NCBI RefSeq assembly: GCF_003018255.1
Contig: NZ_CP027440.1
Length of the DNA stretch: 64,000 bases
Reading direction: 5' to 3' (one strand)
Origin: Escherichia coli
GTDB taxonomy: Bacteria; Pseudomonadota; Gammaproteobacteria; Enterobacterales; Enterobacteriaceae
The notes beneath the pieces were generated by a model that saw only the letters and a program-made list of their open reading frames with translations, was not told the DNA's origin and ran no database searches. The position numbers were made by a program, and so were the translations under genes. Below, one piece after another: positions 30,830-64,000 of this stretch; positions within the stretch are counted from its first letter, which is position 1, and every line of letters begins with the position of its first letter.

Positions 30830-31111
30830 GGATGGCTCTCTTTCCTGGAATATCAGAATTATGGCAGGAGTGAGGGAGGATGACTGCGAGTGGGAGCACG
30901 GTTTTCACCCTCTTCCCACAGCGGCGAGGGGAGCGTCCGAGCATCATGAGGCCGAAAACTCTGCTTTTCAGGTAACTTATTCCCATAAACTCAGATTTAC
31001 TGCTGCTTCACGCAGGATCTGAGTTTATGGGAATGCTCAACCTGGAAGACGGAGGTTTTCTGCAGATTCGCCTGCCATGATGAAGTTATTCAAGCAAGCC
31101 AGGAGATCTGC

Positions 31112-32164
31112 ATGATGTCTGCACCCAAAATTACATTTATCGGCGCTGGTTCGACGATTTTCGTTAAAAATATTCTTGGTGATGTGTTCCATCGCGAGGC
31201 GCTGAAAACGGCGCATATTGCCCTGATGGACATTGATCCCACCCGCCTGGAAGAGTCGCATATTGTGGTGCGCAAGCTGATGGATTCAGCAGGGGCCAGC
31301 GGCAAAATCACCTGCCACACCCAACAGAAAGAAGCCTTACAGGATGCCGATTTTGTCGTGGTGGCATTTCAGATTGGCGGTTATGAACCTTGCACGGTGA
31401 CTGATTTCGAGGTCTGTAAGCGGCATGGTCTGGAACAAACCATTGCCGATACGTTGGGGCCGGGCGGTATTATGCGCGCGCTACGTACCATTCCGCATCT
31501 GTGGCAAATTTGCGAGGACATGACGGAAGTCTGCCCCGATGCCACCATGCTCAACTACGTTAACCCAATGGCGATGAATACCTGGGCGATGTATGCCCGC
31601 TATCCGCATATCAAACAGGTAGGGCTGTGCCATTCGGTGCAGGGAACGGCGGAAGAGCTGGCGCGTGACCTCAATATCGACCCGGCTACGCTGCGTTACC
31701 GTTGCGCAGGTATCAACCATATGGCGTTTTACCTGGAACTGGAGCGCAAAACCGCCGACGGCAGTTACGTGAATCTCTACCCGGAACTGCTGGCGGTTTA
31801 TGAAGCAGGGCAGGCACCGAAGCCGAATATTCATGGCAATACTCGCTGCCAGAATATTGTGCGCTACGAAATGTTCAAAAAGCTGGGCTACTTCGTCACG
31901 GAATCGTCAGAACATTTTGCTGAGTACACGCCGTGGTTTATTAAGCCAGGTCGTGAGGATTTGATTGAGCGTTATAAAGTACCGCTGGATGAGTACCCGA
32001 AACGCTGCGTCGAGCAGCTGGCGAACTGGCATAAAGAGCTGGAGGAGTATAAGAACGCCTCCCGGATTGATATTAAACCGTCACGGGAATATGCCAGCAC
32101 AATCATGAACGCTATCTGGACTGGCGAGCCGAGTGTGATTTACGGCAACGTCCGTAACGTATAG
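31112..32164 (+). pseudogene. melA: alpha-galactosidase, 5' fragment (about 349 codons) truncated by prophage insertion
   Basis: GH4 N-terminus MMSAPKITFIGAGS; the frame ends ...IYGNVRNV* exactly where prophage-end sequence begins; full-length MelA is recalled as about 451 aa. Confidence 0.8.
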
Positions 32165-32287: not shown

Positions 32288-33025
32288 TCATTCACTCTCT
32301 TTCAAACCAGTTTTAACTGTTTGTGGTTTTGGGTAAGGCTGGACTTTGAATAGCTTTGTGTTGAGGCGTTTTCTGGCCCTCTTGTTCAGAAACCGGATGT
32401 AACGAAACTGTCGGAACTTATGCACACTGGCTCTGTCGATATTAGCCCTCAGATGTTCACCTCGTTGTCCGCCTCGTTTAATGGCACTCCTGCAAATCTC
32501 GTGATACCACTCGCCATCAAGTTCATAGAATGTTGATTCATGGCTGCCTACATAATCAAAATTGCTTGCCTGATACACGACACCAAGACAGCCACAACGC
32601 TCATCTGCAAACGACTGAACCCACTGTACCTGCGGATAAAGCTGCCTGATTAGCTTGAGCGCGTAACTGATTGCCCTTGATTCGGAGTTTCTCGGCATAC
32701 AGTCATGCATCCATAGCCGGTTAAGCTCCATATATTCTCGGTTCTGCGTACCCGTTACGACGCGTGCACCACTGTTTGGGTTAAGGGCGTAACCCCATTG
32801 CATTACGCCAACAAGTTCCCGTTCTGAAAATATACCCAGATGAAGGTAGGAATTATTTACGAAACGGTGGCTGTAATGTTTATTGACGATAACCAGTCTG
32901 GCCAGCCAGCAACTTATTGTCTCAACCCGCAACTCACGGGAGCCATAACCAACGATATTGTCGTTATAGCGAATAAGTTCAGGCGTGCTGATGATACGGG
33001 ATGTGACTTGCTTTCTGTTCCCCAC
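32288..33025 (-). CDS. mom: Mom-like DNA modification (adenine carbamoylmethylation) protein
   Basis: 245-aa ORF overlapping the 3' end of a com-like gene, last gene before the prophage end as in Mu; true start probably internal. Confidence 0.6.
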
Positions 33026-33179
33026 GACAGGATTTCCTTGTGTATGTGGGGTGCTCTGTGGCGCTCGGAGATGTGATTTGATTGAGGGTTTTACAGCGCG
33101 GACATTTTACTTCCAGATAACTGAAACTGGCCCGTGCCAGTAGCTTATTGCAGTGTCGGCACCGTATGTTTCGATACAT
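32979..33179 (-). CDS. com: Com-like zinc-finger translational activator of mom
   Basis: [14 protein letters not shown]...EVKCPRCKT... aligns with Mu Com (IRCKNCNKLL...IRCPRCK) from memory; overlaps the mom start. Confidence 0.7.
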
Positions 33180-49893: not shown

Positions 49894-50243
49894 GCGCGGG
49901 CCTTTTTCGCCTGTTTCGCTTTGTTACCGGTCTTTTTCCGGGGAGTATCCTGTCCGGCTTCGGCTAAATCTGTACCGGCCACTGCATGAACCACACCCGC
50001 CACGCTCCCCGCATCATCAGCAGGCGTCTGTAGTATTCGCACAGTGAGGCATGGCTCCGCCTCCAGTCGGGCAAGCTGCTCCGGGGAGACCTCAACCTGC
50101 TGACGTCCACGCGTGAACAGGAACCCCGCACGACGAAACGCCGAACGACTGCAACGCACTTCTGCCAGCACTGTGACAGAATTGTCACCACTGACCTGAA
50201 GACCTGAATCATCTGTTGCTGCCACAGTGTGATGTTCATTCAT
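49890..50243 (-). CDS. hypothetical protein downstream of major head gene (Mu gp35-like)
   Basis: 117-aa ORF. Confidence 0.4.
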   Translation of the reverse strand: MNEHHTVAATDDSGLQVSGDNSVTVLAEVRCSRSAFRRAGFLFTRGRQQVEVSPEQLARLEAEPCLTVRILQTPADDAGSVAGVVHAVAGTDLAEAGQDTPRKKTGNKAKQAKKARA

Positions 50244-50286
50244 ATTTGCCCTCCGCAGGGGCCGGGCCGTAAGCCCGGCTCACCGT

Positions 50287-51234
50287 TTACAGATAATCCG
50301 CGACAACCAGCTCCAGCTTGCCCTTCATCTCGTTAGAGACGGTTGCGTTTCCGTCTGCGAACAGTTCACGCTCCAGCAGCTGCACCGCCTGTTTTTCCAG
50401 CGAGGTGGGGACAACAATATGGGTGGGTTTGATGCCGAGTTTGCGGCCACCGTCAGCGGTAAATTCGCGCATGGCTGACCAGCCGTGCCACAGTGCATCC
50501 AGCGTCAGCGGTGACTGCATCATGTAGGCCATCTGCCAGAAGCCGTAGCCCACATTGCGACGGGCGGATGCACCAAACACAAATTCGTTATCGGTGAATG
50601 CGCGACCTTCATCGACTTTGGTCTGGGCAACCAGTTCAGCCTTACGGCGATCCTGATAAATCAGCGGTTTGATTGCGCGTGAACAGTCGAGCAGATACCA
50701 GGCAGGACCGCTGTAATCCGCTTGTGCACCGACAGAGCCGGTTTTTGCCACAAACATATTGCTGACCATCTGCGCATCCCCGGAGCCATCCACTTTGGGG
50801 TAAACAGGATGTTCGGTATCAAAGAAGTTCTGGCCGTCATAGCAGGCCGCATTAATCCCGTCACGAAGAGCAGCAAAGACCAGTTCATCCGGTTGTGCCG
50901 CAGCAGCGCGCCCCATCTCCTGGAACAACGGGGAATAAATACCGAGGTTATCGTCTTCGAAGTCATCGCGGTTAATGGCGACGGTGCCTTCAAAGGTTTT
51001 GTTCACGATGGCATAGCCATAGGCCTTCATCTTCTCGATGACGCGGGAGCCGATCCACTCACGGAACTGCGGGAACTGCCCCAGCCAGCCGTAGGTGTTG
51101 GATTTCGACGTGGACGGTACGGTCATCGCAATTTTTTTGTACTGCGACGGGGCCATGGACATCCCGGCCTGAAAATCAGAACGGTAGCCCGTCATCAGGG
51201 CGGTGATCATCGCCGGTGTAATCGGGGTAGGCAT
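50287..51234 (-). CDS. major head subunit (Mu T-like)
   Basis: 315-aa ORF directly downstream of protease/scaffold gene. Confidence 0.75.
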   Translation of the reverse strand: MPTPITPAMITALMTGYRSDFQAGMSMAPSQYKKIAMTVPSTSKSNTYGWLGQFPQFREWIGSRVIEKMKAYGYAIVNKTFEGTVAINRDDFEDDNLGIYSPLFQEMGRAAAAQPDELVFAALRDGINAACYDGQNFFDTEHPVYPKVDGSGDAQMVSNMFVAKTGSVGAQADYSGPAWYLLDCSRAIKPLIYQDRRKAELVAQTKVDEGRAFTDNEFVFGASARRNVGYGFWQMAYMMQSPLTLDALWHGWSAMREFTADGGRKLGIKPTHIVVPTSLEKQAVQLLERELFADGNATVSNEMKGKLELVVADYL

Positions 51235-52358
51235 TATTGCATTTCCTCTTTCATTTTCAGGAACTCGGCTTCGGTTTTACCCAGCAGTTTGGCGGCCGCG
51301 ATATCTTCAGCCGACAGCACAGCGGTGGCAGTCTTTTTATCCGGCACGGTCACGGTGTCGGTCTGAAGGCCGGTCAGGGCCGCAACCGGCTGGCGGGCGT
51401 CAAGCTGTGCAGAAAGTGCCGCAACGCCAATCTGCCCGCCCAGTTGTTCCAGATAGCCGCGTTCGCTTTTGAAGATGCGCCCTTCGGATTCAGCCTTGTC
51501 CAGCACCTGCTCCAGCGTGGTGCTGCCGTGCTGCGCCGACAGCGCAACGTATTCGGTACGCAGGGCGTTATACGTTTCAACGGGCACGTATTTCGTCAGA
51601 TCAATACTGCCGCCAGCCGGTGTGCCTTTTGCGGTTTCCAGCTCTGCCGACAGACTGGCGACCTGTGTTTTCAGGTTGTCGTGTGCATCCGCACGGGTTT
51701 TGATCCCGGTGAGGGCAGACAGCGCCGCCGTGCCCAGCTCCGGCGTAAATTCGTCACCGTCAGCCACGGTCAGACCGAGCGCCGTCAGCAACTGGCGTAA
51801 TTGCTCATTCATGGAGGTATCCTTTAAAGGAGGGTTTAAGGCGTTATAAAGGTCATCCGCCGACAGTGCGGCGACAGGATTCATGCCGGTCAGACCGGGG
51901 TCACCGGTAATAGCCAGCATCCGAAGTTCGACAGGTTCGCCGGTGCTCTCGTCATAGCCAATCACCGGTGAAAACCAGGGGAATTCGTTATTACGCAGAT
52001 GTTCAAGGGCCGGAGGGTTCCACTTCGGGCGCACCTCGAAACCTCGCTCTTCACTGAAGCGAAAATTCTCCGGTGAGGCCATCACAAAACCGGCAGCCGG
52101 TGCCGGATGTCCCTCAATCAGGGTCTGGTGGTTGTAGTCAATTTTCACCGGCTGATTGAGCGCCACAACACGGGAGACCATGCGCTCAACGGCTGCATGG
52201 TTGATCAGCCAGCCCTCGGCCGGTTTTTCCGGGCGACCGTCACGGGCCTTTACCCGACCGGCTGGCATGATCTGACACCAGTCACCGTCCCCGTCTGCGG
52301 ACAGGCTGATGGCATTCAGAATGGCATAAGCAAGTTTGGGCGTGTTTTTCGTCTTCAT
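51234..52358 (-). CDS. head maturation protease with nested scaffold (Mu I/Z-like)
   Basis: 374-aa ORF, Ala-rich coiled C-terminal half. Confidence 0.7.
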   Translation of the reverse strand: MKTKNTPKLAYAILNAISLSADGDGDWCQIMPAGRVKARDGRPEKPAEGWLINHAAVERMVSRVVALNQPVKIDYNHQTLIEGHPAPAAGFVMASPENFRFSEERGFEVRPKWNPPALEHLRNNEFPWFSPVIGYDESTGEPVELRMLAITGDPGLTGMNPVAALSADDLYNALNPPLKDTSMNEQLRQLLTALGLTVADGDEFTPELGTAALSALTGIKTRADAHDNLKTQVASLSAELETAKGTPAGGSIDLTKYVPVETYNALRTEYVALSAQHGSTTLEQVLDKAESEGRIFKSERGYLEQLGGQIGVAALSAQLDARQPVAALTGLQTDTVTVPDKKTATAVLSAEDIAAAKLLGKTEAEFLKMKEEMQ

Positions 52359-52534
52359 TCCGGCAGCATAGGCCGGGAATTTTCAGGGCGGGTTTTGCGG
52401 GATTTCAGGAAGTGCTTCCAGGGGAAAAATACAAAGGCGCTTCACGCAGATTTTAAAGCCCGTTAAATACAGGTTAGAAAATCACGACACGCGCCTGAAG
52501 GGGGTAAGGTAATGCATTTGCATACCTTAAACAA
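52359..52534 (-). promoter_or_regulatory. 176-bp non-coding gap upstream of the protease gene with imperfect palindrome aggtaatgcatttgcatacctt; candidate activator-dependent late promoter
   Basis: The only sizeable gap inside the otherwise tightly packed head operon. Confidence 0.3.
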
Positions 52535-53008
52535 TTAAGGCGTTTCTGTGGCCTTTTTAAAGCGTTTTCTGATTTCGTCCATGATCTCCTGCTCTGCCAC
52601 CTGATCAAAGCCCATATACGGACGTGCACCAATGGCCGCCGGTCCCGGCGGCATACCTGGCAGGCCACCCCACTGATGAATGGCCGCATAAGGCTCATTT
52701 GATCCAATCAGCGCCCAGGTGTCGCCATAATCCGTGGTCAGGCGTCGGGCCAGATCGCCGTTCAGCGTCAGGATTTTGCCGGGCATGTATCCCTTACGGG
52801 TACGCCACTTGCGGTAAGGATCTGACCAGTCATGCCAGCGTTCGCCGTCCGGCTCTTTTTCCTGTTCAAACGCCATTTCTGACGATGACAGAAGGCTGGA
52901 CGCCACACTGCGGGCCAGGTCTTTTCCGCCACCCACAAACTGAAGCCGGGCAAAGACCCGCTGGAGACGCGTAACGTCAACAACGACGGCGGCATCAATG
53001 GATGACAT
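52535..53008 (-). CDS. virion morphogenesis protein (Mu G-like)
   Basis: 157-aa ORF between F-like and I-like genes. Confidence 0.6.
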   Translation of the reverse strand: MSSIDAAVVVDVTRLQRVFARLQFVGGGKDLARSVASSLLSSSEMAFEQEKEPDGERWHDWSDPYRKWRTRKGYMPGKILTLNGDLARRLTTDYGDTWALIGSNEPYAAIHQWGGLPGMPPGPAAIGARPYMGFDQVAEQEIMDEIRKRFKKATETP

Positions 53009-53129
53009 ATTGCCTCCGTATAAAATATGAATATAAAATAAGCAGGCGGTCAGTGTACGCTTAACTGGTAAAGTCGGTGCCTGCCTCCGGGTGGATCATG
53101 TATGCGGGTTCGACCCCCGCCACTGACCG

Positions 53130-54461
53130 TTAATCAATATCTCCTTCCAGTACCTCAAGCATTCCGCCCCGGATATCCGATTTCAGCTTATCCATATTGA
53201 TAACCCGGTAAGCATTAACAATCACATCCAGTTTATCCGGCTGACGCTTCAGGCTGTACGGTGCATTAACGGCAATCTGCACACTGCCATCCTGATTTTC
53301 CACGATATACATCAGATTGTTGTGCCGTTTGTCCCACAGTACCGCTTTTGGCCTTGCCAGCATTGCCGGTAAGCGCCCGAAATCCTCCGGTGTCAGGGCG
53401 ATACCGTCATTCTGATGTTTCATGCTGTCCGCATGGAGCACATTTTTACCGCTCATCGCCAGCAGGCGGGCCGGTGGCGTTCCCGTCCGGCTTTCCACCG
53501 CCTGCGCAATGCTTTCGGTCATAAAGCCCAGCGTGCGGATATCGTTACCGCCTCGCCGGGTTTTCATGATGTTTTTTGCCCAGATGCGGAACGCCAGCTG
53601 CCGCTCCGGGCTGTTGTTCATCTCCTGAACCACCATTTCCCGTAACGCCGGGCTTTTCACCTCGATCAACTTGCGGAGCAGCGCCTGGTCTGTGCCGAAC
53701 GCCGCCGAACCGGGGTTATATGACCAGCCCACATCCGGTGTCATGGTTCTGGTGCCATCTGAATATGTGGTCACCGGCATTTCTCTGACTTCTCCGGTCT
53801 GCTTATCCACGCCAGCCTCAACATTGCGGGTGGAAAGATGATCCTGACCGGATGAAACGGATAACCCCATTGCATCCAGACGGGTCTGAGACAATGGCCG
53901 GACACGGCAGCGGCAGTTCCAGCCATTGGGTGGGTAGTGTGTATTCCAGAACGGATCGTCATAGCGGAATACCAGACCGTTAAGGGCGGAATGCGCCGGG
54001 CGGGTGCGGCTGTCCATCACCGCCACATACTGCCAGAACGGATGCGTGTCCGTGTTGTTCATCATCTGCGTGTAACGCCCGGCATTGTAAGCCACGCGGG
54101 TGTTCACGTTGTAAATCAGCGCCAGACGGCGGGGACAGCCCAGCTGCACTTCTTCTGCGTTACCGGCGCTGTCCACCACAATCTGCTTTCCCCACCATCC
54201 CAGCTTTTGCAGGCGGGGGGTCAGTGTGCGGATAAATGCTTTCTGTGAAATCCCCTCATCAATGGCCCGTTGCACTTCCGCCTGTAGTGTGGTCAGTACG
54301 TCCAGGCGTGCCACTTTTGCCGCCGTGAACGAACGGGCATGAACATCCGCGTCTGTTTCGAACCAGTTCCAGCTGATATGCGCCCCTTTGGCGCGGAAGT
54401 ATGCCACCGCCTCTTTTGAGGGAAGCGTGGCGGCATAACCTAAATCAATCCCCTGTGCCAT
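53130..54461 (-). CDS. head morphogenesis protein (Mu F-like)
   Basis: 443-aa ORF downstream of portal. Confidence 0.65.
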   Translation of the reverse strand: MAQGIDLGYAATLPSKEAVAYFRAKGAHISWNWFETDADVHARSFTAAKVARLDVLTTLQAEVQRAIDEGISQKAFIRTLTPRLQKLGWWGKQIVVDSAGNAEEVQLGCPRRLALIYNVNTRVAYNAGRYTQMMNNTDTHPFWQYVAVMDSRTRPAHSALNGLVFRYDDPFWNTHYPPNGWNCRCRVRPLSQTRLDAMGLSVSSGQDHLSTRNVEAGVDKQTGEVREMPVTTYSDGTRTMTPDVGWSYNPGSAAFGTDQALLRKLIEVKSPALREMVVQEMNNSPERQLAFRIWAKNIMKTRRGGNDIRTLGFMTESIAQAVESRTGTPPARLLAMSGKNVLHADSMKHQNDGIALTPEDFGRLPAMLARPKAVLWDKRHNNLMYIVENQDGSVQIAVNAPYSLKRQPDKLDVIVNAYRVINMDKLKSDIRGGMLEVLEGDID

Positions 54462-56043
54462 CCAGCATCCCCTTCATTTCCGCAGCAAACATGGCATCAC
54501 TGAGCAGCGTCATCAGGCGGGAATCATCCATTTCACGGTAAAGGGCAGGCAGGTCTGCCAGTGCCTCCGCCAGCCCCCGCGTTCTGATGGCATCAATGAC
54601 CGGCTCCAGTACCGGGTCGATGGCCTCCTGTAACCGGCGGGCAGGCACCGCATCCCCCATGTCGTCCAGTTCATCTCGGGGGCTGCTTTTCGCTTCCGGC
54701 AGTCTGGCAGCCAGCGCTGTCTGCTCTGTCTTCTCCTGTTTTTCCGGTGGCATCTCTTTGTCTGTCTGAGCAGGTTCATTGCCACTCTGACGGACACGGA
54801 AGATGGCTTCACCGGGGGCAGGCTGTGGAATACCGGTCTGCTCCCGTACCCAGGGATCAGGAATATCCATCCCCGTACTGAGCTGCATCACCGCACTGGT
54901 GATTTTGGTGATATCCCCCGGCTCTTTTGTCTGGAAACAGATACGCGGCAGGCGACGGATATCAATGGCGTGGGCGGTGTTCAGGGCATACAGCGGATAC
55001 ACCAGATCGCGGTTCAGCGTGGCGGCCAGCTGACGTAAATCAGAATCCCTGATTTCCCGGCGCACCTCGTTATGCACTTCACCCAGCGAACGTGCGCCCT
55101 TGTCTCCGGCTTCCGTGGTCAGCGTGCCGCCGAGGATAGCTTTGGAGATGGAACGCTCCCCCCACGAAATCATGGTTTCAAACGGATCGGCCTGACCGTT
55201 CGCTGCCGCCTGAAACTCCAGCGACATCCCGGCCGGGATGATCCCGCCTGTACGTCGCCCGATATCCATCACCGCCCGCATCAGGGCGCTTTTCTGCTCC
55301 GGTGTTGCCCCGGAGGGGTATTTACCGACCTTCATCGGCAGGCCGTACACCTCCAGAAATTCAGCCAGATCGCGCACGGAATAGTTTTTGAAAATGAACG
55401 GCCAGATAAGCGTTCTGACAAGCCCCGTCGCACCACCGTAGCCGGTGCGTGAACGTGACTGATGCACTATCCAGCCAAAGGGCTGAAACGCCACCCCGGC
55501 ATGGCTGCCGTCACGCAGCCGCAGTTCGCTCAAATCATCCGGGTTAAGGCAGAAATGCCCGCTGTCACGCCAGCGGATGGCGCGGATGATGTGCATTTTA
55601 CCGAGCATCCCGTGCTCAATCTCCATGCAGGAATAGCCTTTCAGGATGGCATCGGTGGCATCAAACAGCATGGCATCAAACCAGTCGGCGGAATGCAGAT
55701 ATTCGTCGAGCATTTCCGCGTCCTTTTTCTCATTCGCGCTGGCGTTCGGGGGCGGCTCAATACTCCAGGGCACGCCCTGAATGGCAAGACGTCGCTTGCC
55801 CAGCTCTGCAAAAAGGTGGGTATCCTTTTCTTCAATGTCAGCGGCCAGATCGGACTGGGCAATCAGATCGCCACGTTCAGCCCCGCGAAGGCACTGTGCC
55901 GCCCGGTTCGGGGTGATACCCGAGGCCGGATGTTCAATATAACGGCTGGCAATCTGCGGAATATCCAGCGCGGCGCTCTGCATCTCCGGGTCAAAGGAGA
56001 AAGGTTTTCCGTCAAGATCAATTATACGTCCCACTACCAGCAC
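54445..56043 (-). CDS. portal protein (Mu gp29-like)
   Basis: 532-aa ORF directly downstream of terminase large subunit. Confidence 0.7.
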   Translation of the reverse strand: MLVVGRIIDLDGKPFSFDPEMQSAALDIPQIASRYIEHPASGITPNRAAQCLRGAERGDLIAQSDLAADIEEKDTHLFAELGKRRLAIQGVPWSIEPPPNASANEKKDAEMLDEYLHSADWFDAMLFDATDAILKGYSCMEIEHGMLGKMHIIRAIRWRDSGHFCLNPDDLSELRLRDGSHAGVAFQPFGWIVHQSRSRTGYGGATGLVRTLIWPFIFKNYSVRDLAEFLEVYGLPMKVGKYPSGATPEQKSALMRAVMDIGRRTGGIIPAGMSLEFQAAANGQADPFETMISWGERSISKAILGGTLTTEAGDKGARSLGEVHNEVRREIRDSDLRQLAATLNRDLVYPLYALNTAHAIDIRRLPRICFQTKEPGDITKITSAVMQLSTGMDIPDPWVREQTGIPQPAPGEAIFRVRQSGNEPAQTDKEMPPEKQEKTEQTALAARLPEAKSSPRDELDDMGDAVPARRLQEAIDPVLEPVIDAIRTRGLAEALADLPALYREMDDSRLMTLLSDAMFAAEMKGMLDGTGD

Positions 56044-57698
56044 CCCCGATCAAATTCATGATATGCCTCATCGTCATCACGATAACCGCCCTCCATGGCC
56101 CGCGACCGCTCCGGCAGCGCCTGACAGGCTGATTCATCCAGGATGAAGCCCTCCATGTATGACGCCCGGTTTGCCATACAGAGCGCCACGGCAAAATCGC
56201 CATGGCGGCGGGCGTTCACAGCCGTTGCGTTCTGGTCCTTCGTACGCCCCTTGTCAATTTGCGGGATACCGTTCACCACCTTCACATGGCGCAAATCATC
56301 AAGCGTGGTCTGATGGCGGGCGACGAGGATATTCTGATCCTCAAACTCGGCCTTCAGTTTTGGCATCCACTCGCCGTACCACTTCGGCGATAACATCACG
56401 CAGTCGATGATGTCCGGGCCAAAGGCCAGCAGCGCGGCTTCGGCCAGATAGCCGCCGTTACCGGTGGCGTCGAACGCCGCACCGACCAGCGCCGGAACGC
56501 GGGTCAGGATGTACATCATCACCTGCTCCTGCTGGGCATACGGCAGGTTGCGCAGCTCCACGCGAAACACCTCGCGTTTTGCCAGGGATTCAGTGATTTC
56601 CAGCAGCACAAAGCAGGAGAGGTCACCGATGCGGGCAAAGTCTTCCCCGAAGCTGAAGCGGGAACGGGGATTTAACGCCTCTAAAAGCGGTTTTAAATGT
56701 TCTTCACACCAGGTTAAAACCTCCGATTCACGCAGCCATGCGGCACGGCTGATGAAGTCGTCCGGGGCTTCAAACGTCAGAATCGGGATGTCGCGGAGCA
56801 TCGCCATTTCAATAAGCGCGTGAGGAATATAGGCACCGCCGGATTTTTTCGGGATACAGCCGTATTCCTCGTCGGCATCCTCACGGGTCGGGGCGTTTTT
56901 GTAGAGATCATCACGCCACTTCTGCTCGCTTTCCGGTGACCATTCGCGGCCGGTGACATAACAGATACGACGGTACAGCCCGTCCGCAATGGCATCATCC
57001 AGGGTAATGCGGTGGACGCTGTAATCCTTGCGCCCCTCGCGGGCTTCCTGAATGTACTGATTAAACAGATTATCGACGCCGTTATGCGTGGAGATAATAC
57101 GCACGCGCGCGCCCCACATGGTGAGCGCCATTGCCGCCTTGAGAAGCTCATCCAGTGACTCGTGGAACGCGGCTTCATCAATCACCACATCCCCCTGAAG
57201 GCCGCGCAGGTTTGACGGACGGGAAGACAGTGCCTGAATTTTGAATCCACTGTTCGGAAAGCGGATCATGTAGGTCAGAATTTCTTCTTTTTTATCCCGA
57301 TCCCAGAAGGTCTGCTCATACACATCAGCATCTGCCAGCTGGTTAAAGGCACGGGAGAACAGTGCGCAGGCAGAAATATATTCCAGCGCCATCTCCTGCT
57401 TTGACCCCACATAAAACACATTGCGGCCACCACGCCGCTTAGGCTTTGCGGCGGTAATGACGTTACGCCCGGCTTCCGCCCAGGTAAGCCCGGTGCGGCG
57501 GGATTTTTCCGCGATGCAGACCTCGCTTTCATCCTCAAACCAGCGGGCCTGATAATCCAGAAATACCGGCATATCACCGGGCAAATCAAGGCTGTCCGGC
57601 ACATCCACGCCCAGCAGGGCTTTTTCACCGGCCAGATCAATTTTGCGGGTGGAGACGGTATTCGTCAGTAAGGGGGAGAGTTCTTCGGCGTTATTCAT
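56034..57698 (-). CDS. terminase large subunit (Mu gp28-like)
   Basis: 554-aa ORF; size and position upstream of portal. Confidence 0.75.
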   Translation of the reverse strand: MNNAEELSPLLTNTVSTRKIDLAGEKALLGVDVPDSLDLPGDMPVFLDYQARWFEDESEVCIAEKSRRTGLTWAEAGRNVITAAKPKRRGGRNVFYVGSKQEMALEYISACALFSRAFNQLADADVYEQTFWDRDKKEEILTYMIRFPNSGFKIQALSSRPSNLRGLQGDVVIDEAAFHESLDELLKAAMALTMWGARVRIISTHNGVDNLFNQYIQEAREGRKDYSVHRITLDDAIADGLYRRICYVTGREWSPESEQKWRDDLYKNAPTREDADEEYGCIPKKSGGAYIPHALIEMAMLRDIPILTFEAPDDFISRAAWLRESEVLTWCEEHLKPLLEALNPRSRFSFGEDFARIGDLSCFVLLEITESLAKREVFRVELRNLPYAQQEQVMMYILTRVPALVGAAFDATGNGGYLAEAALLAFGPDIIDCVMLSPKWYGEWMPKLKAEFEDQNILVARHQTTLDDLRHVKVVNGIPQIDKGRTKDQNATAVNARRHGDFAVALCMANRASYMEGFILDESACQALPERSRAMEGGYRDDDEAYHEFDRGCW

Positions 57699-58279
57699 CA
57701 GGCTTTACCCAACAGAATCCCCTTAATACGGGACTCAAGCTGTTCACTCATCCCGTCCACGCCGCGCAGCTCGTCGGTGACGGCGTTTGCCATCTCTTCA
57801 GCAAATGCAGCCCGGATTTCTTTTTCACGCTTAATGCTGCGCTCGGCGGCACTTTCCGCACGCTGTGCTGACAGGAGGATGTCCTTAATAAGACGCATAT
57901 CCACGTCGCTGTCACTGTTCAGGGATTCGGTCGCGGCACGCAGACGGCGGTACATCAGGGCGCGGGACATCTCCAGAATCAGCGCTGTGGTTTCACCGGT
58001 TGGCTTGTCTCCCAGTTCGGCCATCATGGCTTTTGTCTGCTCGCGTAAATCACGCAGGTTACGGGCAATCAGCTCATTACGGGAGGCTTCCCGGCTGATG
58101 GCCGCCGGTGAAAGCTGCTGCTCTTCCGGCAGGCCCGCCTCACGGATCAGACGGTTGATTTCCTCGCGTATCTGGACCTGCGTCAGACGTTTTTCACGCA
58201 GCATTTCCAGCAGTGGCTTACGGATGCTGTCGGGGAGCAAATCCACCTTGCGCACGCGTCCACGCGTCGGCTTGTCCAT
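57698..58279 (-). CDS. terminase small subunit-like / DNA-binding protein (Mu gp27-like)
   Basis: 193-aa charged helical ORF immediately upstream of the large terminase. Confidence 0.5.
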   Translation of the reverse strand: MDKPTRGRVRKVDLLPDSIRKPLLEMLREKRLTQVQIREEINRLIREAGLPEEQQLSPAAISREASRNELIARNLRDLREQTKAMMAELGDKPTGETTALILEMSRALMYRRLRAATESLNSDSDVDMRLIKDILLSAQRAESAAERSIKREKEIRAAFAEEMANAVTDELRGVDGMSEQLESRIKGILLGKA

Positions 58280-58281
58280 CG

Positions 58282-58572
58282 TTACCCCCTTGCGCGTGGT
58301 TTCTTCACACCCGGAACGCTGGCGCGACCTTCCGCCACATCCTGACCCCGGCCGGTCAGTTCGGCGATGAAATAACCGTTAACGAGCGTGCGCTTACGCA
58401 CCAGTCCCTGCTCGGCAAGCCAGGCAATGTGGGTGTGAACGGTGTCGCGGGACACGCGGTGGCCGTAATCATCCAGACAGTCCTGGAGCACGGATTCACC
58501 CAGTTCACCGTTGTAATCTGCCAGCGACCGCAGAATGACCAGACGCTGATCTTCAGTAATGAAATCACTCAT
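58282..58572 (-). CDS. hypothetical protein (Mu gp26-like)
   Basis: 96-aa ORF. Confidence 0.4.
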   Translation of the reverse strand: MSDFITEDQRLVILRSLADYNGELGESVLQDCLDDYGHRVSRDTVHTHIAWLAEQGLVRKRTLVNGYFIAELTGRGQDVAEGRASVPGVKKPRARG

Positions 58573-58877
58573 TGCGTTTTTTTCCTTACAGCCTGCTCCA
58601 GCAGCAGTTCGTTCTGATAGGAGACAGAGCGGAGCGTGGCGTTCGTGGTTTTCAGTTCACCCCGCAGGGTCACGATTTCCACATTCAGACGGTTGACCTC
58701 GGCTTCTGTCGGCAGTGACGACAGGCGGGTTTCCACCTTCTCAACGCGGTCGGAGAGTTTTTCAAAGGCCTCGCGGGGGACAAACGTTTTGCGCATCAGC
58801 GCCATGAATATCCCGCCAGCGGTTGCCGTCGCCGAAAGGATCGGCACAACATAATCTTTAACGATGCTGACCCACAT
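58569..58877 (-). CDS. membrane protein with one TM helix and coiled coil; candidate endolysin-release (releasin-like) lysis factor
   Basis: 102-aa ORF, N-terminal hydrophobic segment ILSATATAGGIFMALM, sits in the lysis-proximal block. Confidence 0.35.
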   Translation of the reverse strand: MWVSIVKDYVVPILSATATAGGIFMALMRKTFVPREAFEKLSDRVEKVETRLSSLPTEAEVNRLNVEIVTLRGELKTTNATLRSVSYQNELLLEQAVRKKTQ

Positions 58878-59085
58878 GACGGGCCTCCATGATGTTCTGG
58901 CAGTTCACACAACGGATGGCATCCGGCACAGCAACAAGACGTGCGGCGGGGATCTCTCCGCCACAGTCCGCGCAGACACGTCTGCCCGGAGCATCCATTG
59001 CCCGGCGCTTACGTGTCAGCCGGTTACAAAGGGCGCGTTCTGATCCCCGCTCCATCACAGCCTGAGCACGATCTGAATCATCCAT
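58858..59085 (-). CDS. TraR/DksA-family C4 zinc-finger protein
   Basis: CADCGGEIPAARLVAVPDAIRCVNC motif (CxxC-17-CxxC); start taken at MDDSDRAQ. Confidence 0.6.
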   Translation of the reverse strand: MDDSDRAQAVMERGSERALCNRLTRKRRAMDAPGRRVCADCGGEIPAARLVAVPDAIRCVNCQNIMEARHVGQHR

Positions 59086-59095
59086 ACCTTTTTCC

Positions 59096-59467
59096 TTACT
59101 TCGTCTTTCCTGCCGGAACAGCAGGCGTTCCGGCCATATCAGTAAATTCATGTTGTCGCCGCGCCTCCAGACGACGAATACTGGCCTTGTCCACGTTGCA
59201 GTTCTTGATCACCGCCAGCAGTTGCAGGTTGTAAGTGACCGATGCCCCAAACGTGAACGGCTCCGGCGCAGGAGGGACCAGGCAGTCAGCCAGCCATTCA
59301 GCGGGGATCGGCACCGGCTTCACAGGCACGTATTTCACAGACGGCCCGGCGCACCCGATCAGCCACATCATCAGGAACAGGGGCAGAGGCCGCAGGCACT
59401 GCCGCCAGCGACCGGCGGACAACGCTCTGCTGCCCCTCGCTGTGCTGAATGTTCTGTTGTTTTTCAT
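59096..59467 (-). CDS. o-spanin (Rz1-like) lipoprotein, out of frame within and beyond the Rz-like gene
   Basis: Lipobox LIGC followed by a proline-rich mature region; read from the alternative frame of ORF 59096..59662. Confidence 0.5.
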   Translation of the reverse strand: MKNNRTFSTARGSRALSAGRWRQCLRPLPLFLMMWLIGCAGPSVKYVPVKPVPIPAEWLADCLVPPAPEPFTFGASVTYNLQLLAVIKNCNVDKASIRRLEARRQHEFTDMAGTPAVPAGKTK

Positions 59468-59648
59468 TCGTGGCCGCCTCACTGATTTGTGAAATGAGTT
59501 GCAGGGTGTGCTGCTGATTTGCCAGCACCTGACGCGCCTCATCCCGCTCACGCACAAGCACCTGATTATTGTCTTCAAGGCGCTGCGTCTTCTGGTGCAT
59601 TCCCCATATAGCGGCAACCAGTACAGCGATAATCCCCAGCGCCGCCAT
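59298..59648 (-). CDS. i-spanin (Rz-like), start uncertain
   Basis: N-terminal TM helix then charged coiled coil; ORF track 59298..59819 overlaps lys, so an internal start was chosen. Confidence 0.5.
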   Translation of the reverse strand: MAALGIIAVLVAAIWGMHQKTQRLEDNNQVLVRERDEARQVLANQQHTLQLISQISEAATNEKQQNIQHSEGQQSVVRRSLAAVPAASAPVPDDVADRVRRAVCEIRACEAGADPR

Positions 59649-59760
59649 GCACGCCCCGGCAATCAGGGCCGGTAAGGCATTATTCACCGCAGCCACAGGA
59701 CACCCCGTAACAGCAGTACCGCACACAGCAGCGCTATCATGAGCGGTCGCCAGAAGCGGT

Positions 59761-60261
59761 TCAGACTTTCGGCAAGTCGTAGCGACATAACCATTCATCC
59801 GCCGAACGGCGGGCCTCAAGGCCGGGGAGTTTCACCCCCTTTGAATAAATCCAGCGGATATACTGCTTACAGGACGCGGGCATCTGCCCGGCATTGATCA
59901 GGCGCAGAAGCGTGGAGTTGCGAAAGTTCGTTTCACCGGCCCAGAAGATCCACGAAGCCAGCGCCACCGTCTGACCACGGGTAAGCGGCACCTGAACACG
60001 CCGATCAATGGCCGCAAAGGCCCATTTCATGTCCTTTTCCAGTAGTTCCAGGCATTCTTCATCTGTCAGGGTCATACCCGGTTTCACATCCGGGCCGGTA
60101 TGGCCGTAACAGATGGTGGGTGTACCGGAGGGATCGATATACGTGGAGTTTTCTTTCCCTTCCCAGTAACCGGTGTAATGCGTGGCAATCGTGAACGTCC
60201 CGGCACCGGCCAGAACAAGGGCAATCAGCTTTTTACGCAGTGGTGCGGGGAGTTTTGGCAT
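59761..60261 (-). CDS. SAR endolysin (T4-lysozyme-like, GH24)
   Basis: N-terminal Gly/Ala-rich weak TM (LIALVLAGAGTFTIA) then E...D...T catalytic spacing (YWEGKE..YIDPSGTPTICYG). Confidence 0.7.
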   Translation of the reverse strand: MPKLPAPLRKKLIALVLAGAGTFTIATHYTGYWEGKENSTYIDPSGTPTICYGHTGPDVKPGMTLTDEECLELLEKDMKWAFAAIDRRVQVPLTRGQTVALASWIFWAGETNFRNSTLLRLINAGQMPASCKQYIRWIYSKGVKLPGLEARRSADEWLCRYDLPKV

Positions 60262-60332
60262 TGTTACGCTGTCTCATGATGTTCTCTGAGTCAGCGTAAC
60301 GGTGAAGGAGAGGCGGCAGGCTTTGCGGAATA

Positions 60333-60758
60333 TCAGAAAAGTGGCGGTTGCGTTCTTGCCAGATGCAGACGGCGCTGTTCGCGTATGACGGTATAAATCT
60401 GGGTTTCTGACATCCGGTAATGGCGGCGAAGGGATTCAATTTTCTCGCCCCGGTCCCAGCGCGAAAATATCTCATTGTTTCGCAGCTCGGCAAAGAGAGA
60501 TTCCCCGACCGGCAGGTAATAACCCCGTCCGCCCATATAGGCTGCCTGAGCCGCAGCCACCTTGCGTGCCAGTTTACCGGCCAGTACCGGCTCAATCCCC
60601 TGACGCTGAAGTTCTGCGCCGGTGACTTCAACCAGTTCTGACAGGGTCCGCGGCCAGTTCTTTTTGAGAACATCATCAGGGATGTCATCAAGGCGGTCGA
60701 TAAGGGCGTGCAGTTGCTCACTGTCACCACCAAACATGCTCATCTGAGTTTCTGCCAT
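60333..60758 (-). CDS. Mor/C-family transcriptional activator
   Basis: C-terminal region GGRGYYLP...IYTVIREQRRL resembles Mu Mor (GGGQVYIP...VYKAIRRMRRL, recalled); immediately upstream of the lysis gene. Confidence 0.65.
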   Translation of the reverse strand: MAETQMSMFGGDSEQLHALIDRLDDIPDDVLKKNWPRTLSELVEVTGAELQRQGIEPVLAGKLARKVAAAQAAYMGGRGYYLPVGESLFAELRNNEIFSRWDRGEKIESLRRHYRMSETQIYTVIREQRRLHLARTQPPLF

Positions 60759-60827
60759 ATCAGCCTCCGGTTCTCGCGTTCCCGGTAAGTTTAAAATAAA
60801 AATCCCGCGTTGTGGCGGGATTTGGAG

Positions 60828-61337
60828 TTAACGGGGAAGTGATTTTTCATACTGCCTGCAAACGGCGTCATACCCCATCAGCGTGCGTTCGGGCATTCCC
60901 ATCGCGGCCAGCATTTTGCGGCGGTGCCATCGCTTGAGACGCTCCAGCACATCTGAGGCCAGGGCGGGGTGTTGCTCCAGCCACTGCCAGTTTGCCACAC
61001 CTTCGCCGCCGTTTTGCGCGGCCGTCTGCGATTTCACCCAGCGGTTAAGGGCGGTTTCCGCACCATCGGTGATAAAGCCCTGCCGGTGCATCACCTTCCA
61101 GATGGCGCGAATTTTGGCGGTCACCGTACCCGGTTTTAAGGCCCGGTTAACCGGGTTCTGACGCACTTTAAAACCGCGTTTTTTGAAAACATCCAGCACG
61201 CGGGATAACTCATCCGGTGACATATCCCGGCAGCTGGTTTTGCCGGTGGCTGCCAGCAGCGCGGATGTATAAGTCTCATCATCCAGGGCAAGCTCGCGCT
61301 TTGCCACATGAATGGCGGATATCAGTTTTCCTCTCAT
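60828..61337 (-). CDS. GemA-like (DUF1018) early regulatory protein
   Basis: 169-aa ORF with N-terminus LISAIHVAKRELALDDETY typical of the family; position before Mor/C as in Mu. Confidence 0.55.
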   Translation of the reverse strand: MRGKLISAIHVAKRELALDDETYTSALLAATGKTSCRDMSPDELSRVLDVFKKRGFKVRQNPVNRALKPGTVTAKIRAIWKVMHRQGFITDGAETALNRWVKSQTAAQNGGEGVANWQWLEQHPALASDVLERLKRWHRRKMLAAMGMPERTLMGYDAVCRQYEKSLPR

Positions 61338-61630
61338 ACCGTATTTACCTTTTTACGGACATGGAAAGCCTTTTCTGCCTCATCCCACCGGGCATGGTGT
61401 GTTGGTGGAATAATCATTATGTGCCAGCCATCTCTGGTTGTTATCCGGCAGAAAAATTCACCGCTATATAACACAATGGCCTGCTGAATGAGCGCATCAG
61501 CCGCCCGTTCAACCGGATGTCTTTTATCAAAAAAGCAGATGATTTTTCGACATAACCACCGGGTAATAACAAATGCGCCGAAAAAGGATGTGATATATAA
61601 GCACCAGAACAACAGAGAACTATTGTCCAT
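61334..61630 (-). CDS. hypothetical early-region membrane protein
   Basis: 98-aa ORF with hydrophobic N-terminus. Confidence 0.35.
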   Translation of the reverse strand: MDNSSLLFWCLYITSFFGAFVITRWLCRKIICFFDKRHPVERAADALIQQAIVLYSGEFFCRITTRDGWHIMIIPPTHHARWDEAEKAFHVRKKVNTV

Positions 61631-61817
61631 TATCTTTCTCCTTATTCAGTCTTCTGCGACATTCGGCACAGTCATCAGGGCTTTCAAATGTATCCGGCTC
61701 GCGATTATGAGCCAGATATAACCACCGCCTACATATACTGATATTATCGCCAGTTTTAAAAAAATGATGCTTCTTAGCCATCAGAGGGCGCGCCCATCCA
61801 GCGGGTAGACTATTCAT
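61620..61817 (-). CDS. hypothetical early-region protein
   Basis: 65-aa ORF. Confidence 0.3.
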   Translation of the reverse strand: MNSLPAGWARPLMAKKHHFFKTGDNISICRRWLYLAHNREPDTFESPDDCAECRRRLNKEKDNGQ

Positions 61818-62184
61818 TTGCTTTATCCTCCATACTGGACAAAATCATCTGTATTAATGTCGGGCGTGGAGATATACGCATTTCATTAAGCGTCTGAAGG
61901 GCAGCAACAGCTGCCTGTTTATCGGTGCCTTTGGCAATTTCCGCAAGAGAATGCACAATCCATAACGGACTTAACGCCACGACTGAATCCAGAATCATGT
62001 CATCCATAATAATTTCTGACACATCCCGCTTATCACATTCCTTATCCATAAAAGAAACGATTTTTTCCACATCTTCCGGTTTCATGCCTCCGGCGATAAG
62101 AAATTTGCGATACTCATAAGACGATCTTAATTCAATACTCATATTCATCTCCTGTAACTCTGACAAGGACGTGATTTTTCTCAT
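61810..62184 (-). CDS. hypothetical early-region protein
   Basis: 124-aa ORF, overlapping start/stop with neighbours. Confidence 0.4.
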   Translation of the reverse strand: MRKITSLSELQEMNMSIELRSSYEYRKFLIAGGMKPEDVEKIVSFMDKECDKRDVSEIIMDDMILDSVVALSPLWIVHSLAEIAKGTDKQAAVAALQTLNEMRISPRPTLIQMILSSMEDKANE

Positions 62185-62366
62185 TTATGTTTTCCAGTAA
62201 TACGGATATATATGTCGATAAGAAGATTCATAATAAACAGGAAGAGCGACATCCTGATAAAGAACCAAATATCTGGCATCATGGACAGGTTTCCTGTAAT
62301 CGCAAATATAACCCCCCCCCCCAACACCGGAACGAAAATTGCGAAAAATACAAGTCTCTTTATCAT
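62181..62366 (-). CDS. hypothetical small membrane protein
   Basis: 61-aa ORF with two hydrophobic segments. Confidence 0.35.
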   Translation of the reverse strand: MIKRLVFFAIFVPVLGGGVIFAITGNLSMMPDIWFFIRMSLFLFIMNLLIDIYIRITGKHK

Positions 62367-62914
62367 GGCGTTAACTCCCGTAATACAGCGTCCTCGGCAG
62401 TCCGGCGATGGTGATAAATAAAATTCACCGTACTCTCGGATAATTCAAATTTCTCGCCTATTTCCCGGAAGGTAAGACGTCGTGGTGATTCAGCATCCCG
62501 TAATTCACGAATAAGATGAACATCATCGTCAGGTATACGGGTGAAGGGCAGCAATTCTCCGTATTTTTTCATGCTTACGCCAATATATCGCGCCCGATTG
62601 TGGACAGAATCCCGGTCTCGCCCCAGATATTCTCCTATTTGCTTACCGGTCATCGTTCTGGCATTTTTTCGGATAAATTTATCTTCATCATGTTTAAATC
62701 TTGGACGTTTGCATTTGAGCAACTCCGGGTAAGTACCGCGTAATAAAACAATCCGGTTATGTACACCCCAGAAACTTCTTTTTACCCTGACAGCAATATC
62801 CTTAACCGGGGTGGATGGATAAAGCGCAATCAGCAGCGCATCTTCTTCAGGTGTCCACGCACGGACATGAGCAGGTGCCTGACCTTTTCGCCCCATGGGT
62901 TGTAAAATCATCAT
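62363..62914 (-). CDS. hypothetical early-region protein with several helix-turn-helix-like segments
   Basis: 183-aa basic ORF with HTH-like stretches (TGKQIGEYLGRDRDSVHNRARYIG, LTFREIGEKFELSESTVNFI). Confidence 0.4.
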   Translation of the reverse strand: MMILQPMGRKGQAPAHVRAWTPEEDALLIALYPSTPVKDIAVRVKRSFWGVHNRIVLLRGTYPELLKCKRPRFKHDEDKFIRKNARTMTGKQIGEYLGRDRDSVHNRARYIGVSMKKYGELLPFTRIPDDDVHLIRELRDAESPRRLTFREIGEKFELSESTVNFIYHHRRTAEDAVLRELTP

Positions 62915-62917
62915 ACA

Positions 62918-63433
62918 TCACCCCCTGACTCGCTTTTCAGCAGCATAAAACTCATCAGACAGAATTTCGGTCATTTTCTGATTTGCGGGTTTTACGCCGC
63001 ACTCAAGGTAAATCACATCGTCAACGCAGAACCACTTCACAGGGCCAAACATGATTGCCGAGAAATCAATACCCAGCCAGAACAACAGTGCATCGGTTCT
63101 GGCATACGTGACGGGCGAATATTCACGCCACAGACTGTTAAGTTCGTCAGAGGCAACGCGCAGGGCTTTGGGAATACGTGATGTGCGCGGTGTGCAGCTC
63201 CAGCCATTCGACGCAGTCGGTTTTCGCCATAAGTCGCGATGAAAAGGATATTTGTCATCCATAAAGCGCAGCCCTTTAAAACAAAAGCCACTGATACCGG
63301 ATACAAATACCGACCGGCACGCAACATTCAGCACGGCCTCAAGGCGTTTTGCCTCATCCTTAACTTTCTGGCAGTCCTGCTGATATTTTTGCCACGCGGC
63401 CAGCGCGGAAGGGTTTGATGTTTTAAAGAACAT
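62918..63433 (-). CDS. hypothetical early-region protein
   Basis: 171-aa ORF. Confidence 0.4.
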   Translation of the reverse strand: MFFKTSNPSALAAWQKYQQDCQKVKDEAKRLEAVLNVACRSVFVSGISGFCFKGLRFMDDKYPFHRDLWRKPTASNGWSCTPRTSRIPKALRVASDELNSLWREYSPVTYARTDALLFWLGIDFSAIMFGPVKWFCVDDVIYLECGVKPANQKMTEILSDEFYAAEKRVRG

Positions 63434-63966
63434 TACGCCACCTCCGCAGATATCCCGGCAGGCGCGGCCGTCCGGTCAACAATCAGGTAACGCAGAACGC
63501 GCGAGGTGATATTCCAGCCGCTTAAACCGCAGATAATGACACCCAGGCGTATGTCGATATACGCCATCACAAACTGGGGCACGCCTTCTTTCATGGCCTG
63601 CTCATCAACTTCAGCCACCACATAAACGGTTTCACAGGTCAGAACGCCCTGAGCAAATTCCCACGCCATTGACGGAATATCATGCCCCTCAATCCACGGC
63701 AGGGATTTTCTGAAGCTGCACCACTGAACATCATCAGCCGCACCTTCCTGGCTGCATTTGCGACGAACCGGCTGCACCGGGCGGGGACGCGGAATATCAT
63801 AAAAACCGTTACATTCCGTCAGCACCCCGGCATCGACCGCATCACGCAGAAAATAAACCATCGAGGATGGCGGCATATTCATTTTTTCAGCCAGAATGCC
63901 GCAGGTCAGACGCCCGTAAATACTCAGCCAGTTTTTAACCCCTTCAAGCACTTTTGCATCAATCAT
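63433..63966 (-). CDS. hypothetical early-region protein with N-terminal winged-helix-like segment
   Basis: 177-aa ORF. Confidence 0.4.
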   Translation of the reverse strand: MIDAKVLEGVKNWLSIYGRLTCGILAEKMNMPPSSMVYFLRDAVDAGVLTECNGFYDIPRPRPVQPVRRKCSQEGAADDVQWCSFRKSLPWIEGHDIPSMAWEFAQGVLTCETVYVVAEVDEQAMKEGVPQFVMAYIDIRLGVIICGLSGWNITSRVLRYLIVDRTAAPAGISAEVA

Positions 63967-64000
63967 GAATTATTCCTCCGTCAGCGCCACATATTCAGAA

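Follow-up and report, generated by a model that had tools for sequence, protein, structure and literature searches.

Results

Seven genes fill the interval upstream of gemA

The 64,000-nucleotide stretch of Escherichia coli DNA analyzed here (contig NZ_CP027440.1 of assembly GCF_003018255.1), hereafter referred to as the window, ends within the early region of a Mu-like prophage. Between positions 61334 and 63966, upstream of the genes encoding GemA and Mor, exactly seven minus-strand open reading frames (ORF1 to ORF7, numbered from the GemA side) fill the interval. This agrees with an initial annotation made from the sequence alone, which had described seven tightly packed ORFs in the position of the Mu semi-essential (SE) early region. 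The comparisons presented here indicate that the region probably represents the half of the SE region farthest from the promoter in an Sp18-type Mu-like prophage and that it is composed of non-essential accessory modules, each consisting of a single gene.

Neighboring ORFs either overlap by 1–11 nt or are separated by a 3 nt gap, and ORF1 overlaps the start of gemA by 4 nt. A Shine-Dalgarno-like motif precedes every ORF start, RefSeq calls the same seven coding sequences, and all seven ORFs match PHROG families, with ORF4 doing so weakly (E 9e-4). Measured against their most divergent gap-free alleles, the seven ORFs yield ratios of nonsynonymous to synonymous substitution rates (dN/dS) of 0.11–0.26, with GemA in the same range, and they evolve under purifying selection. 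The dN/dS values, the PHROG matches, and the RefSeq calls therefore identify them as real genes; together with the Shine-Dalgarno motifs, they rule out chance ORFs. A non-coding RNA or repeat element was likewise rejected, as Rfam returned nothing at E 1 or better and the region contains no meaningful repeats and no tRNA. GC content is 0.38–0.44 for ORF1 to ORF4 and 0.38–0.46 when ORF5 is included, compared to 0.50–0.53 for ORF6 and ORF7 and 0.55–0.57 for GemA and Mor. The low GC content of ORF1 to ORF5 is a foreign composition.

The locus belongs to a Mu-like prophage of Shiga-toxin-producing and other E. coli

The 61334–63966 segment is 100% identical to that of E. coli strain War, and several O157:H7 genomes match it at 99.9% identity. 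It was found in 232 of 5426 complete E. coli genomes, which places this prophage type in approximately 4% of them, O157:H7 and other Shiga-toxin producers included, and it also occurs within “Mu-like phage” insertions inside Shiga toxin (Stx)-converting phages. Our presumptive label “Sp18-type” is based on the O157:H7 matches. Sp18, the Mu-like prophage of O157 Sakai, has been described as apparently intact and as refractory to induction by mitomycin C (PMC2669165).

RefSeq annotates the identical locus as a Mu-like prophage. In the direction of transcription, the c repressor gene is followed by genes for a Ner-like helix-turn-helix (HTH) protein, a transposase of the MuA type, and an ATPase of the MuB type, and then by five small genes. 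Next come the genes for a Gam family protein and a hypothetical protein of 180 amino acids (aa), ORF7 through ORF1, and the genes for a gp16 (GemA) family protein and a Mor family protein, with lysis and head genes located downstream of the latter. The window edge cuts the 180-aa gene 30 bases in, such that its last codons occupy positions 63970–64000; the seven ORFs thus constitute the promoter-distal half of the early accessory region. Beyond the window end are genes for a Kil-like protein (phrog_2679), a nuclease-inhibitor-like protein (phrog_1518), and a Gam ortholog (phrog_491, 57% identity). The initial annotation had associated the region with host-takeover genes such as kil and gam. 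A Kil-like gene and gam do occur in this prophage, but they reside upstream of the seven ORFs and outside of the window. It had also noted that none of the ORFs resembles Mu Gam, which is borne out by blastp (best E 4.5 among the seven) and is explained by Gam being encoded two genes past the end of the window. The possibility that the seven ORFs conceal a Gam or Kil could be dismissed, as both lie beyond the window end.

ORF7 and ORF6 form a conserved Mu-type core

By sequence comparison, ORF7 (63433–63966, minus strand, 177 aa) is a full-length ortholog of Mu gp11. The two proteins are 67% identical by blastp over residues 1–177 versus 1–176 (E 3e-80), and ORF7 residues 90–167 match all 78 positions (1–78 of 78) of Pfam PF25754 (Gp11_C) with an i-Evalue of 1.2e-39. 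Its dN/dS is 0.24. For comparative purposes, we scanned IMG/VR twice, around relatives of gp12 and gp11, which yielded 107 loci (L005–L111; L numbers are our handles for fetched sequences). In all IMG/VR loci fetched with ORF7 (gp11) as the query, the gene maintains its position between gam and gemA, and in every fetched relative, it is found either directly after gam or after a variable gene following gam. The initial annotation had regarded ORF7 as winged-helix-like, which our searches did not confirm: Pfam detects the C-terminal Gp11_C domain only, no Pfam HTH match with an i-Evalue of 10 or better was obtained for ORF7 or 11 of its relatives, and a PDB profile search was empty.

Directly downstream of ORF7, ORF6 (62918–63433, minus strand, 171 aa) is, judged in the same manner, a full-length ortholog of Mu gp12, with which it shares 55% identity across a blastp alignment of 168 residues (E 1e-66). 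PF26885 (“Mu-Gp12 family”) is precomputed on 46 of 46 ORF6 cluster representatives, one of which is 98% identical to ORF6, and a protein identical to ORF6 is named “Mu-Gp12 family protein” in one RefSeq record. An AlphaFold2 (AF2) model of ORF6 matched no solved fold. We also considered whether ORF6 and the 180-aa gene after gam are paralogs, which BLASTP did not support (E 0.48).

ORF5 encodes a Myb-like repeat protein related to Mu gp9

ORF5 (62363–62914, minus strand, 183 aa) had been described as a basic protein with multiple HTH motifs, and this description holds. Its predicted isoelectric point (pI) is 9.9, a repeat-by-repeat comparison resolves three tandem Myb/SANT-like HTH repeats, and its relatives at 41–59% identity, in Salmonella and Citrobacter, are matched by the Pfam Myb/SANT families PF00249/PF13921. 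ORF5 itself obtained HTH matches in Pfam only at i-Evalues of 0.17 or worse, with no direct Myb/SANT match. Its PHROG match is to phrog_323, annotated “transcriptional regulator, D5-like” (E 6e-59). ORF5 residues 66–168 align with Mu gp9 residues 1–92 at 30% identity (blastp, E 2e-8), and the repeats are collinear, with ORF5 repeat 2 matching gp9 repeat 1 (8e-7) and repeat 3 matching gp9 repeat 2 (8e-4), which leaves ORF5 repeat 1 as an extra Myb-like unit.

In the fetched loci, the presence of ORF5 and that of a gp9 gene upstream exclude each other: gp9 alone was scored in 22 loci, the downstream ORF5 alone in 43, and both in one, with some contigs having been fetched twice. In that single locus, the gp9 query may have matched ORF5 itself. 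PADLOC returned a weak homing-endonuclease match for ORF5 (E 0.008), which fits with the finding that ORF5-type repeats adjoin HNH endonucleases and methyltransferases in mycobacteriophages. From these features, we infer that ORF5 is a DNA-binding protein.

A combinatorial slot of small genes lies between gp11 and gemA

After the removal of identical sequences, 56 distinct gp11-to-GemA intervals remained, exhibiting approximately 20 gene orders, and the variability that had been ascribed to this part of the prophage is therefore evident. The spacing between gp11 and GemA is as short as 105 bp in L080, where nothing intervenes, and reaches 3376 bp at the other extreme (median, 2099 bp). Across these loci, the conserved order consists of Gam, the 180-aa gene (present, absent, or replaced), gp11, gp12 (present or absent), variable small genes, GemA, and Mor. 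GemA (60828–61337, minus strand), which RefSeq names a “gp16 family protein” and which is 44% identical to Mu GemA, forms the conserved downstream boundary of the slot. The modules that occupy it include gp12, ORF5, ORF4, alt110 (103–110 aa, phrog_6925), alt130 (130 aa, phrog_6158), a gp13-like Cys-rich protein, ORF3, a gp14-like protein, ORF2, ORF1 or its 51%-identical allele, and Mu_54.

These modules are found in many combinations and associate freely. In SfMu, ORF3 is accompanied by gp13 and gp14 but by neither ORF2 nor ORF1, and it is the sole recognized module in L089, while ORF1 is the only member of ORF1 to ORF4 in L026 and L037. Among complete E. coli genomes at ≥80% coverage, the gp11–gp12 pair is found in 231, 107 of which also carry the ORF1–4 cassette. 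The free combinations, the range of spacing, and the 107/231 retention of the cassette provide strong comparative evidence that ORF1 to ORF6 are dispensable accessory modules recombining one gene at a time. This pattern also argues against a multi-component system. In the copy nested within the Stx2c phage LC727881, three extra genes encoding a 75-aa acidic protein, alt110 (103 aa), and alt130 (130 aa) are found between ORF4 and ORF3 (L001 9859–10759), and hence the slot grows by insertion as well as by replacement. A conserved core (gp11, often with gp12) can therefore be separated from the swappable modules located between gp11 and gemA.

A second variable position was encountered between gam and gp11, where the 180-aa gene (phrog_2260; L002 11671–12213) is present, absent, or replaced among close relatives. 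Its replacement variant shares only 23–24% identity.

ORF4 to ORF1 are small modules of differing distribution

Close relatives of the prophage carry gp13-like and gp14-like genes where ORF1 to ORF4 stand, and comparison of the latter with Mu gp13, gp14, and Mu_54 yielded no blastp match below E 0.7, such that they have no Mu counterpart. Two of the four, ORF4 and ORF1, are confined to this prophage lineage. ORF4 (62181–62366, minus strand, 61 aa; pI 10.4, dN/dS 0.17) is almost wholly hydrophobic, with hydropathy windows covering residues 1–58, and probably has two membrane spans. Its only match among phage records is a nested copy of the same prophage type. Many close relatives lack ORF4 and instead have alt110, with or without alt130, after ORF5; one copy holds ORF4 in addition to both alt110 and alt130. 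ORF1 (61334–61630, minus strand, 98 aa; phrog_17269) has one N-terminal hydrophobic segment (residues 4–24) followed by a domain of approximately 65 residues and has no homolog in other deposited phages. The second ORF1 allele retains the N-terminal segment, while its C-terminal domain differs. Hydropathy thus supports the initial assignment of two small membrane proteins.

ORF3 (minus strand) encodes 110 aa at 61810–62142 from its better-supported start, or 124 aa at 61810–62184 from an upstream start. Of the two starts, the internal ATG at 62142 is preceded by the better ribosome-binding site; RefSeq uses it as well, and all homologs begin there. The protein is acidic (pI 4.8), with six predicted helices and a conserved motif, SLSxxWI..L..IA.G.D..AAVAAL. 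Homologs of 34–42% identity are found in SfMu (SfMu_14), in Yersinia Mu-like phages, and on several Mu-like contigs from IMG/VR, in every case a short distance upstream of gemA. An exhaustive profile search of 1.84 billion proteins recovered 36 representatives, nearly all of them stand-alone proteins of approximately 100 aa, and the AF2 model of ORF3 matched no solved fold.

ORF2 (61620–61817, minus strand, 65 aa) is a small basic protein assigned to phrog_2358 (E 3e-33) with a dN/dS of 0.11. By tblastn, it is present in 316 phage records, 289 of which are Pseudomonas phages, and also in one Klebsiella and one Pantoea phage. The listed Pseudomonas examples are genomes of approximately 66 kb such as 14-1 (genus Pbunavirus), in which the homolog, ORF85 (L112 1690–1899), is found among a run of small hypothetical genes. 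His18, Cys29, Cys50, and Cys53 are invariant in a three-genus alignment, which suggests that ORF2 is a small zinc-binding module. The Klebsiella phage homolog (L047 3992–4189) is encoded directly upstream of a DNA methyltransferase gene. A linked ORF3–ORF2 pair was considered for that phage and rejected, as the 124-aa neighbor present there is not homologous to ORF3.

Taken together with the orthology of ORF7 and ORF6 to gp11 and gp12 and the relatedness of ORF5 to gp9, these distributions indicate that the initial description of the region as lineage-specific was overstated. It applies to ORF1 and ORF4, but not uniformly, given the ORF3 homologs in SfMu and Yersinia Mu-like phages and the many ORF2 homologs in other phage records.

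Database searches for anti-defense and host-takeover functions

No match tied any of the seven ORFs to anti-defense or host takeover in PADLOC, NCBIfam, PDB sequence and profile searches, or two fold searches. PADLOC-DB 2.0 yielded zero matches for six ORFs and only the aforementioned homing-endonuclease match for ORF5, and a defense system was rejected on this basis. NCBIfam and PDB sequence searches were negative for all seven ORFs, and PDB searches with concatenated ORFs and three family profiles returned nothing significant. Similarly, with Pfam, PHROGs, and PDB sequence and profile searches of the seven ORFs and fold searches of ORF3 and ORF6 serving as indirect tests, neither homology nor fold similarity to a characterized inhibitor was detected.

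Transcription signals and other features of the prophage

A terminator-like hairpin followed by a T-run lies on the minus strand at 60800–60823, within the 69-nt gap between gemA and mor, with 9 pairs (5 G-C) and a 6-nt loop. The number of terminator-like sites in the region does not exceed chance, and the hairpin draws its support from its intergenic position only. The early transcript may terminate here, which would imply separate control of mor. Four promoter-like sites were found in the region compared to 5.1 expected from shuffled sequence, and the only one on the minus strand is inside ORF1. Promoter and terminator counts at chance level led us to reject a self-expressed moron with internal promoters and terminators. 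The mor and lysozyme genes are separated by a short gap that contains a 14-nt inverted repeat with 93% complementarity and a 10-nt spacer (60263–60300), which may function as an operator, as a promoter element, or as a terminator.

The Mu-like prophage is nested in the portal gene of another prophage (window ~30794–32158 and, past the window end, L002 18692–18919; L113 3795–5159). RefSeq represents the split portal gene as a fragment without its N-terminus on one side and a fragment without its C-terminus on the other, flanked by lambdoid-type tail and capsid genes on one side and by a terminase large-subunit gene on the other. The Stx2c phage LC727881 is annotated with the same kind of nesting. 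At the right end of the prophage (window ~32288–33179; L113 5289–6180), a Com family regulator gene precedes a gene for a 245-aa hypothetical protein, and the two occupy the place that com and mom have in Mu. Lastly, RefSeq annotates a “tRNA-OTHER” at window ~53049–53128 (L002 750–829), between virion morphogenesis and head morphogenesis genes, whereas ARAGORN found no tRNA in window 50000–64000.

Discussion

The current study assigns seven genes to an already known kind of locus, the SE region of Mu-like phages, and their presence there is ordinary for a phage of this type. By analogy with Mu, the seven genes would form the tail of a long early transcript initiated at Pe, beyond the window end, with ner, A, B, a kil-like gene, and gam ahead of them. 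Expression would be expected within minutes of induction or infection, and the overlapping stops and starts suggest that translation would proceed by coupling. Two layers can be distinguished. The first is the conserved Mu core of ORF7 (gp11) and ORF6 (gp12), together with ORF5 standing in for Mu gp9, and the second is a swap slot between this core and gemA, occupied here by ORF4 to ORF1 and in Mu by gp13, gp14, and Mu_54. Each product most likely acts alone, given that the modules recombine independently. ORF5 would bind DNA, and DNA binding by ORF7 is conceivable from an unconfirmed sequence pattern only. ORF2 most likely serves as a small zinc-binding adaptor of the His/Cys3 type, ORF3 is probably an acidic helical protein binder, and ORF1 and ORF4 most likely insert into the inner membrane. 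Together, the products would probably tune the host, or phage DNA transactions, in the opening minutes of the lytic cycle, with none being essential.

Several considerations weigh against this interpretation. The proposed co-transcription of the genes from Pe, like the proposed termination at the hairpin that follows gemA, is extrapolated from Mu. The IMG/VR loci may include defective prophages, such that dispensability in nature is a conclusion drawn from sequence comparison. No significant fold or family match backs any of the biochemical roles, and those proposed for ORF1 to ORF4 and ORF7 are derived from composition, hydropathy, and conserved residues. In the case of ORF7, Pfam did not detect an N-terminal HTH, while the AF2 model of ORF6 is only moderately confident (predicted local distance difference test score of 70.5), and a fold match may have been missed as a result.

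It is possible, but in our estimation not likely, that ORF5 and ORF7/gp11 instead serve as regulators or cofactors of the phage's own program of transposition, replication, or early-to-middle switching and are not directed at the host at all, a scenario which overlaps with the interpretation that we favor. The three HTH repeats of ORF5 and its annotated PHROG, the constant placement of gp11 relative to gam, the mutual replacement of ORF5 and gp9, and the regulatory nature of the neighboring gemA and mor in Mu would all be in keeping with it. However, some relatives lack both gp9 and ORF5, as far as the fetched flanks reach, a search of the region revealed neither binding sites nor repeats, and ORF5-type repeats also adjoin homing endonucleases and methyltransferases in unrelated phages, which marks them as a generic DNA-binding module. 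A service to the lysogen seems far less probable. Here, ORF1 and ORF4, and possibly others, would provide superinfection exclusion or other protection by way of leaky early transcription. In Mu lysogens, low-level transcription from Pe (and Pe*) has been reported to reach the SE genes, and a benefit to the host has been suggested (PMC3820752); ORF1 and ORF4 are predicted membrane proteins as well, and the two ORF1 alleles differ in the non-membrane domain. Nevertheless, more than 7 kb separates the genes from Pe, the operon whose far end they occupy is repressed, the region has no promoter signal above chance, and apart from the weak homing-endonuclease match of ORF5, PADLOC offers no defense-system model for them.

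The initial annotation had singled out this region as the most likely place in the prophage for anti-defense or host-takeover functions. In its specific form, this would mean that at least one of the seven genes, most likely among ORF1 to ORF4, is an early factor inhibiting a host immune or housekeeping protein, which we consider unlikely. Consistent with such a role, the genes belong to an early operon alongside gam, a kil-like gene, and a nuclease-inhibitor-like gene, their modules turn over to an extreme degree among close relatives, their GC content is low, and their products are small and without a recognized fold. Furthermore, ORF3 is acidic, and ORF2 is common to virulent Pseudomonas phages, where it resides among small early hypothetical genes. 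On the other hand, high turnover is equally expected of neutral or weakly beneficial accessory genes, and gp11 and gp12 are conserved Mu genes rather than lineage-specific ones. We favor a set of single-gene accessory modules within the SE region. As a more speculative proposal, about which we remain doubtful, one or more of the shuffled modules might be a new kind of inhibitor of a host defense or housekeeping protein, having a fold absent among solved structures. ORF2, the His/Cys3 mini-protein found in virulent Pseudomonas phages, and ORF3, the acidic six-helix protein with 36 representatives, would be the best candidates. If true, the gp12-to-gemA slot would constitute a counter-defense “hot spot” similar to the anti-CRISPR locus of Pseudomonas Mu-like phages. 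For screens of host-directed or counter-defense functions in temperate E. coli phages, the slot supplies an ordered list of candidates: ORF2, ORF3, ORF1, ORF4, alt110, and alt130.

Mu is a classic model phage, and yet the functions of its SE-region genes are still described as “largely unknown” (PMC3820752). In the literature, we found no characterization of Mu gp9, gp11, gp12, the SE/accessory region, or the Pseudomonas-phage ORF2 homolog. Clear homology of all seven ORFs to characterized Mu proteins was likewise not found, as only three of them (ORF5, ORF6, and ORF7) have Mu relatives, and those are uncharacterized. When examined side by side with the SE region of Mu (Mu_11 to Mu_54, gam to gemA, AF083977), the prophage exhibits the same order of Gam, gp11, gp12, small genes, GemA, and Mor, with ORF7 and ORF6 resembling gp11 and gp12, and nothing in it is surprising for a Mu-like phage. 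Mu has gp13 (a Cys-rich protein of 60 aa), gp14, and Mu_54 where this prophage holds ORF5 to ORF1, and its gp9 lies upstream of gam, whereas ORF5, with its extra N-terminal repeat, lies downstream of gp12. Unlike Mu, this prophage has the additional 180-aa gene (phrog_2260) between gam and gp11, and its gemA and mor are separated by the 69-nt gap containing the hairpin, while those of Mu overlap.

The Shigella phage SfMu (KP010268, SfMu_11 to SfMu_17) shares the 180-aa gene after gam (40%) in addition to gp11 (67%) and gp12 (54%). It also encodes the ORF3 homolog SfMu_14 (34–37% identity) in the same slot before gemA. Around this homolog, SfMu retains Mu-type gp13, gp14, and Mu_54, and like Mu, it has gp9 upstream of gam; ORF1, ORF2, ORF4, and ORF5 are all lacking. 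Further close counterparts are Sp18 of O157:H7 Sakai and the “Mu-like phage” insertions in Stx phages (LC727881, LC727895). LC727881 carries the segment at 96% identity with the same genes and differs by the three extra small genes (75, 103, and 130 aa) between ORF4 and ORF3.

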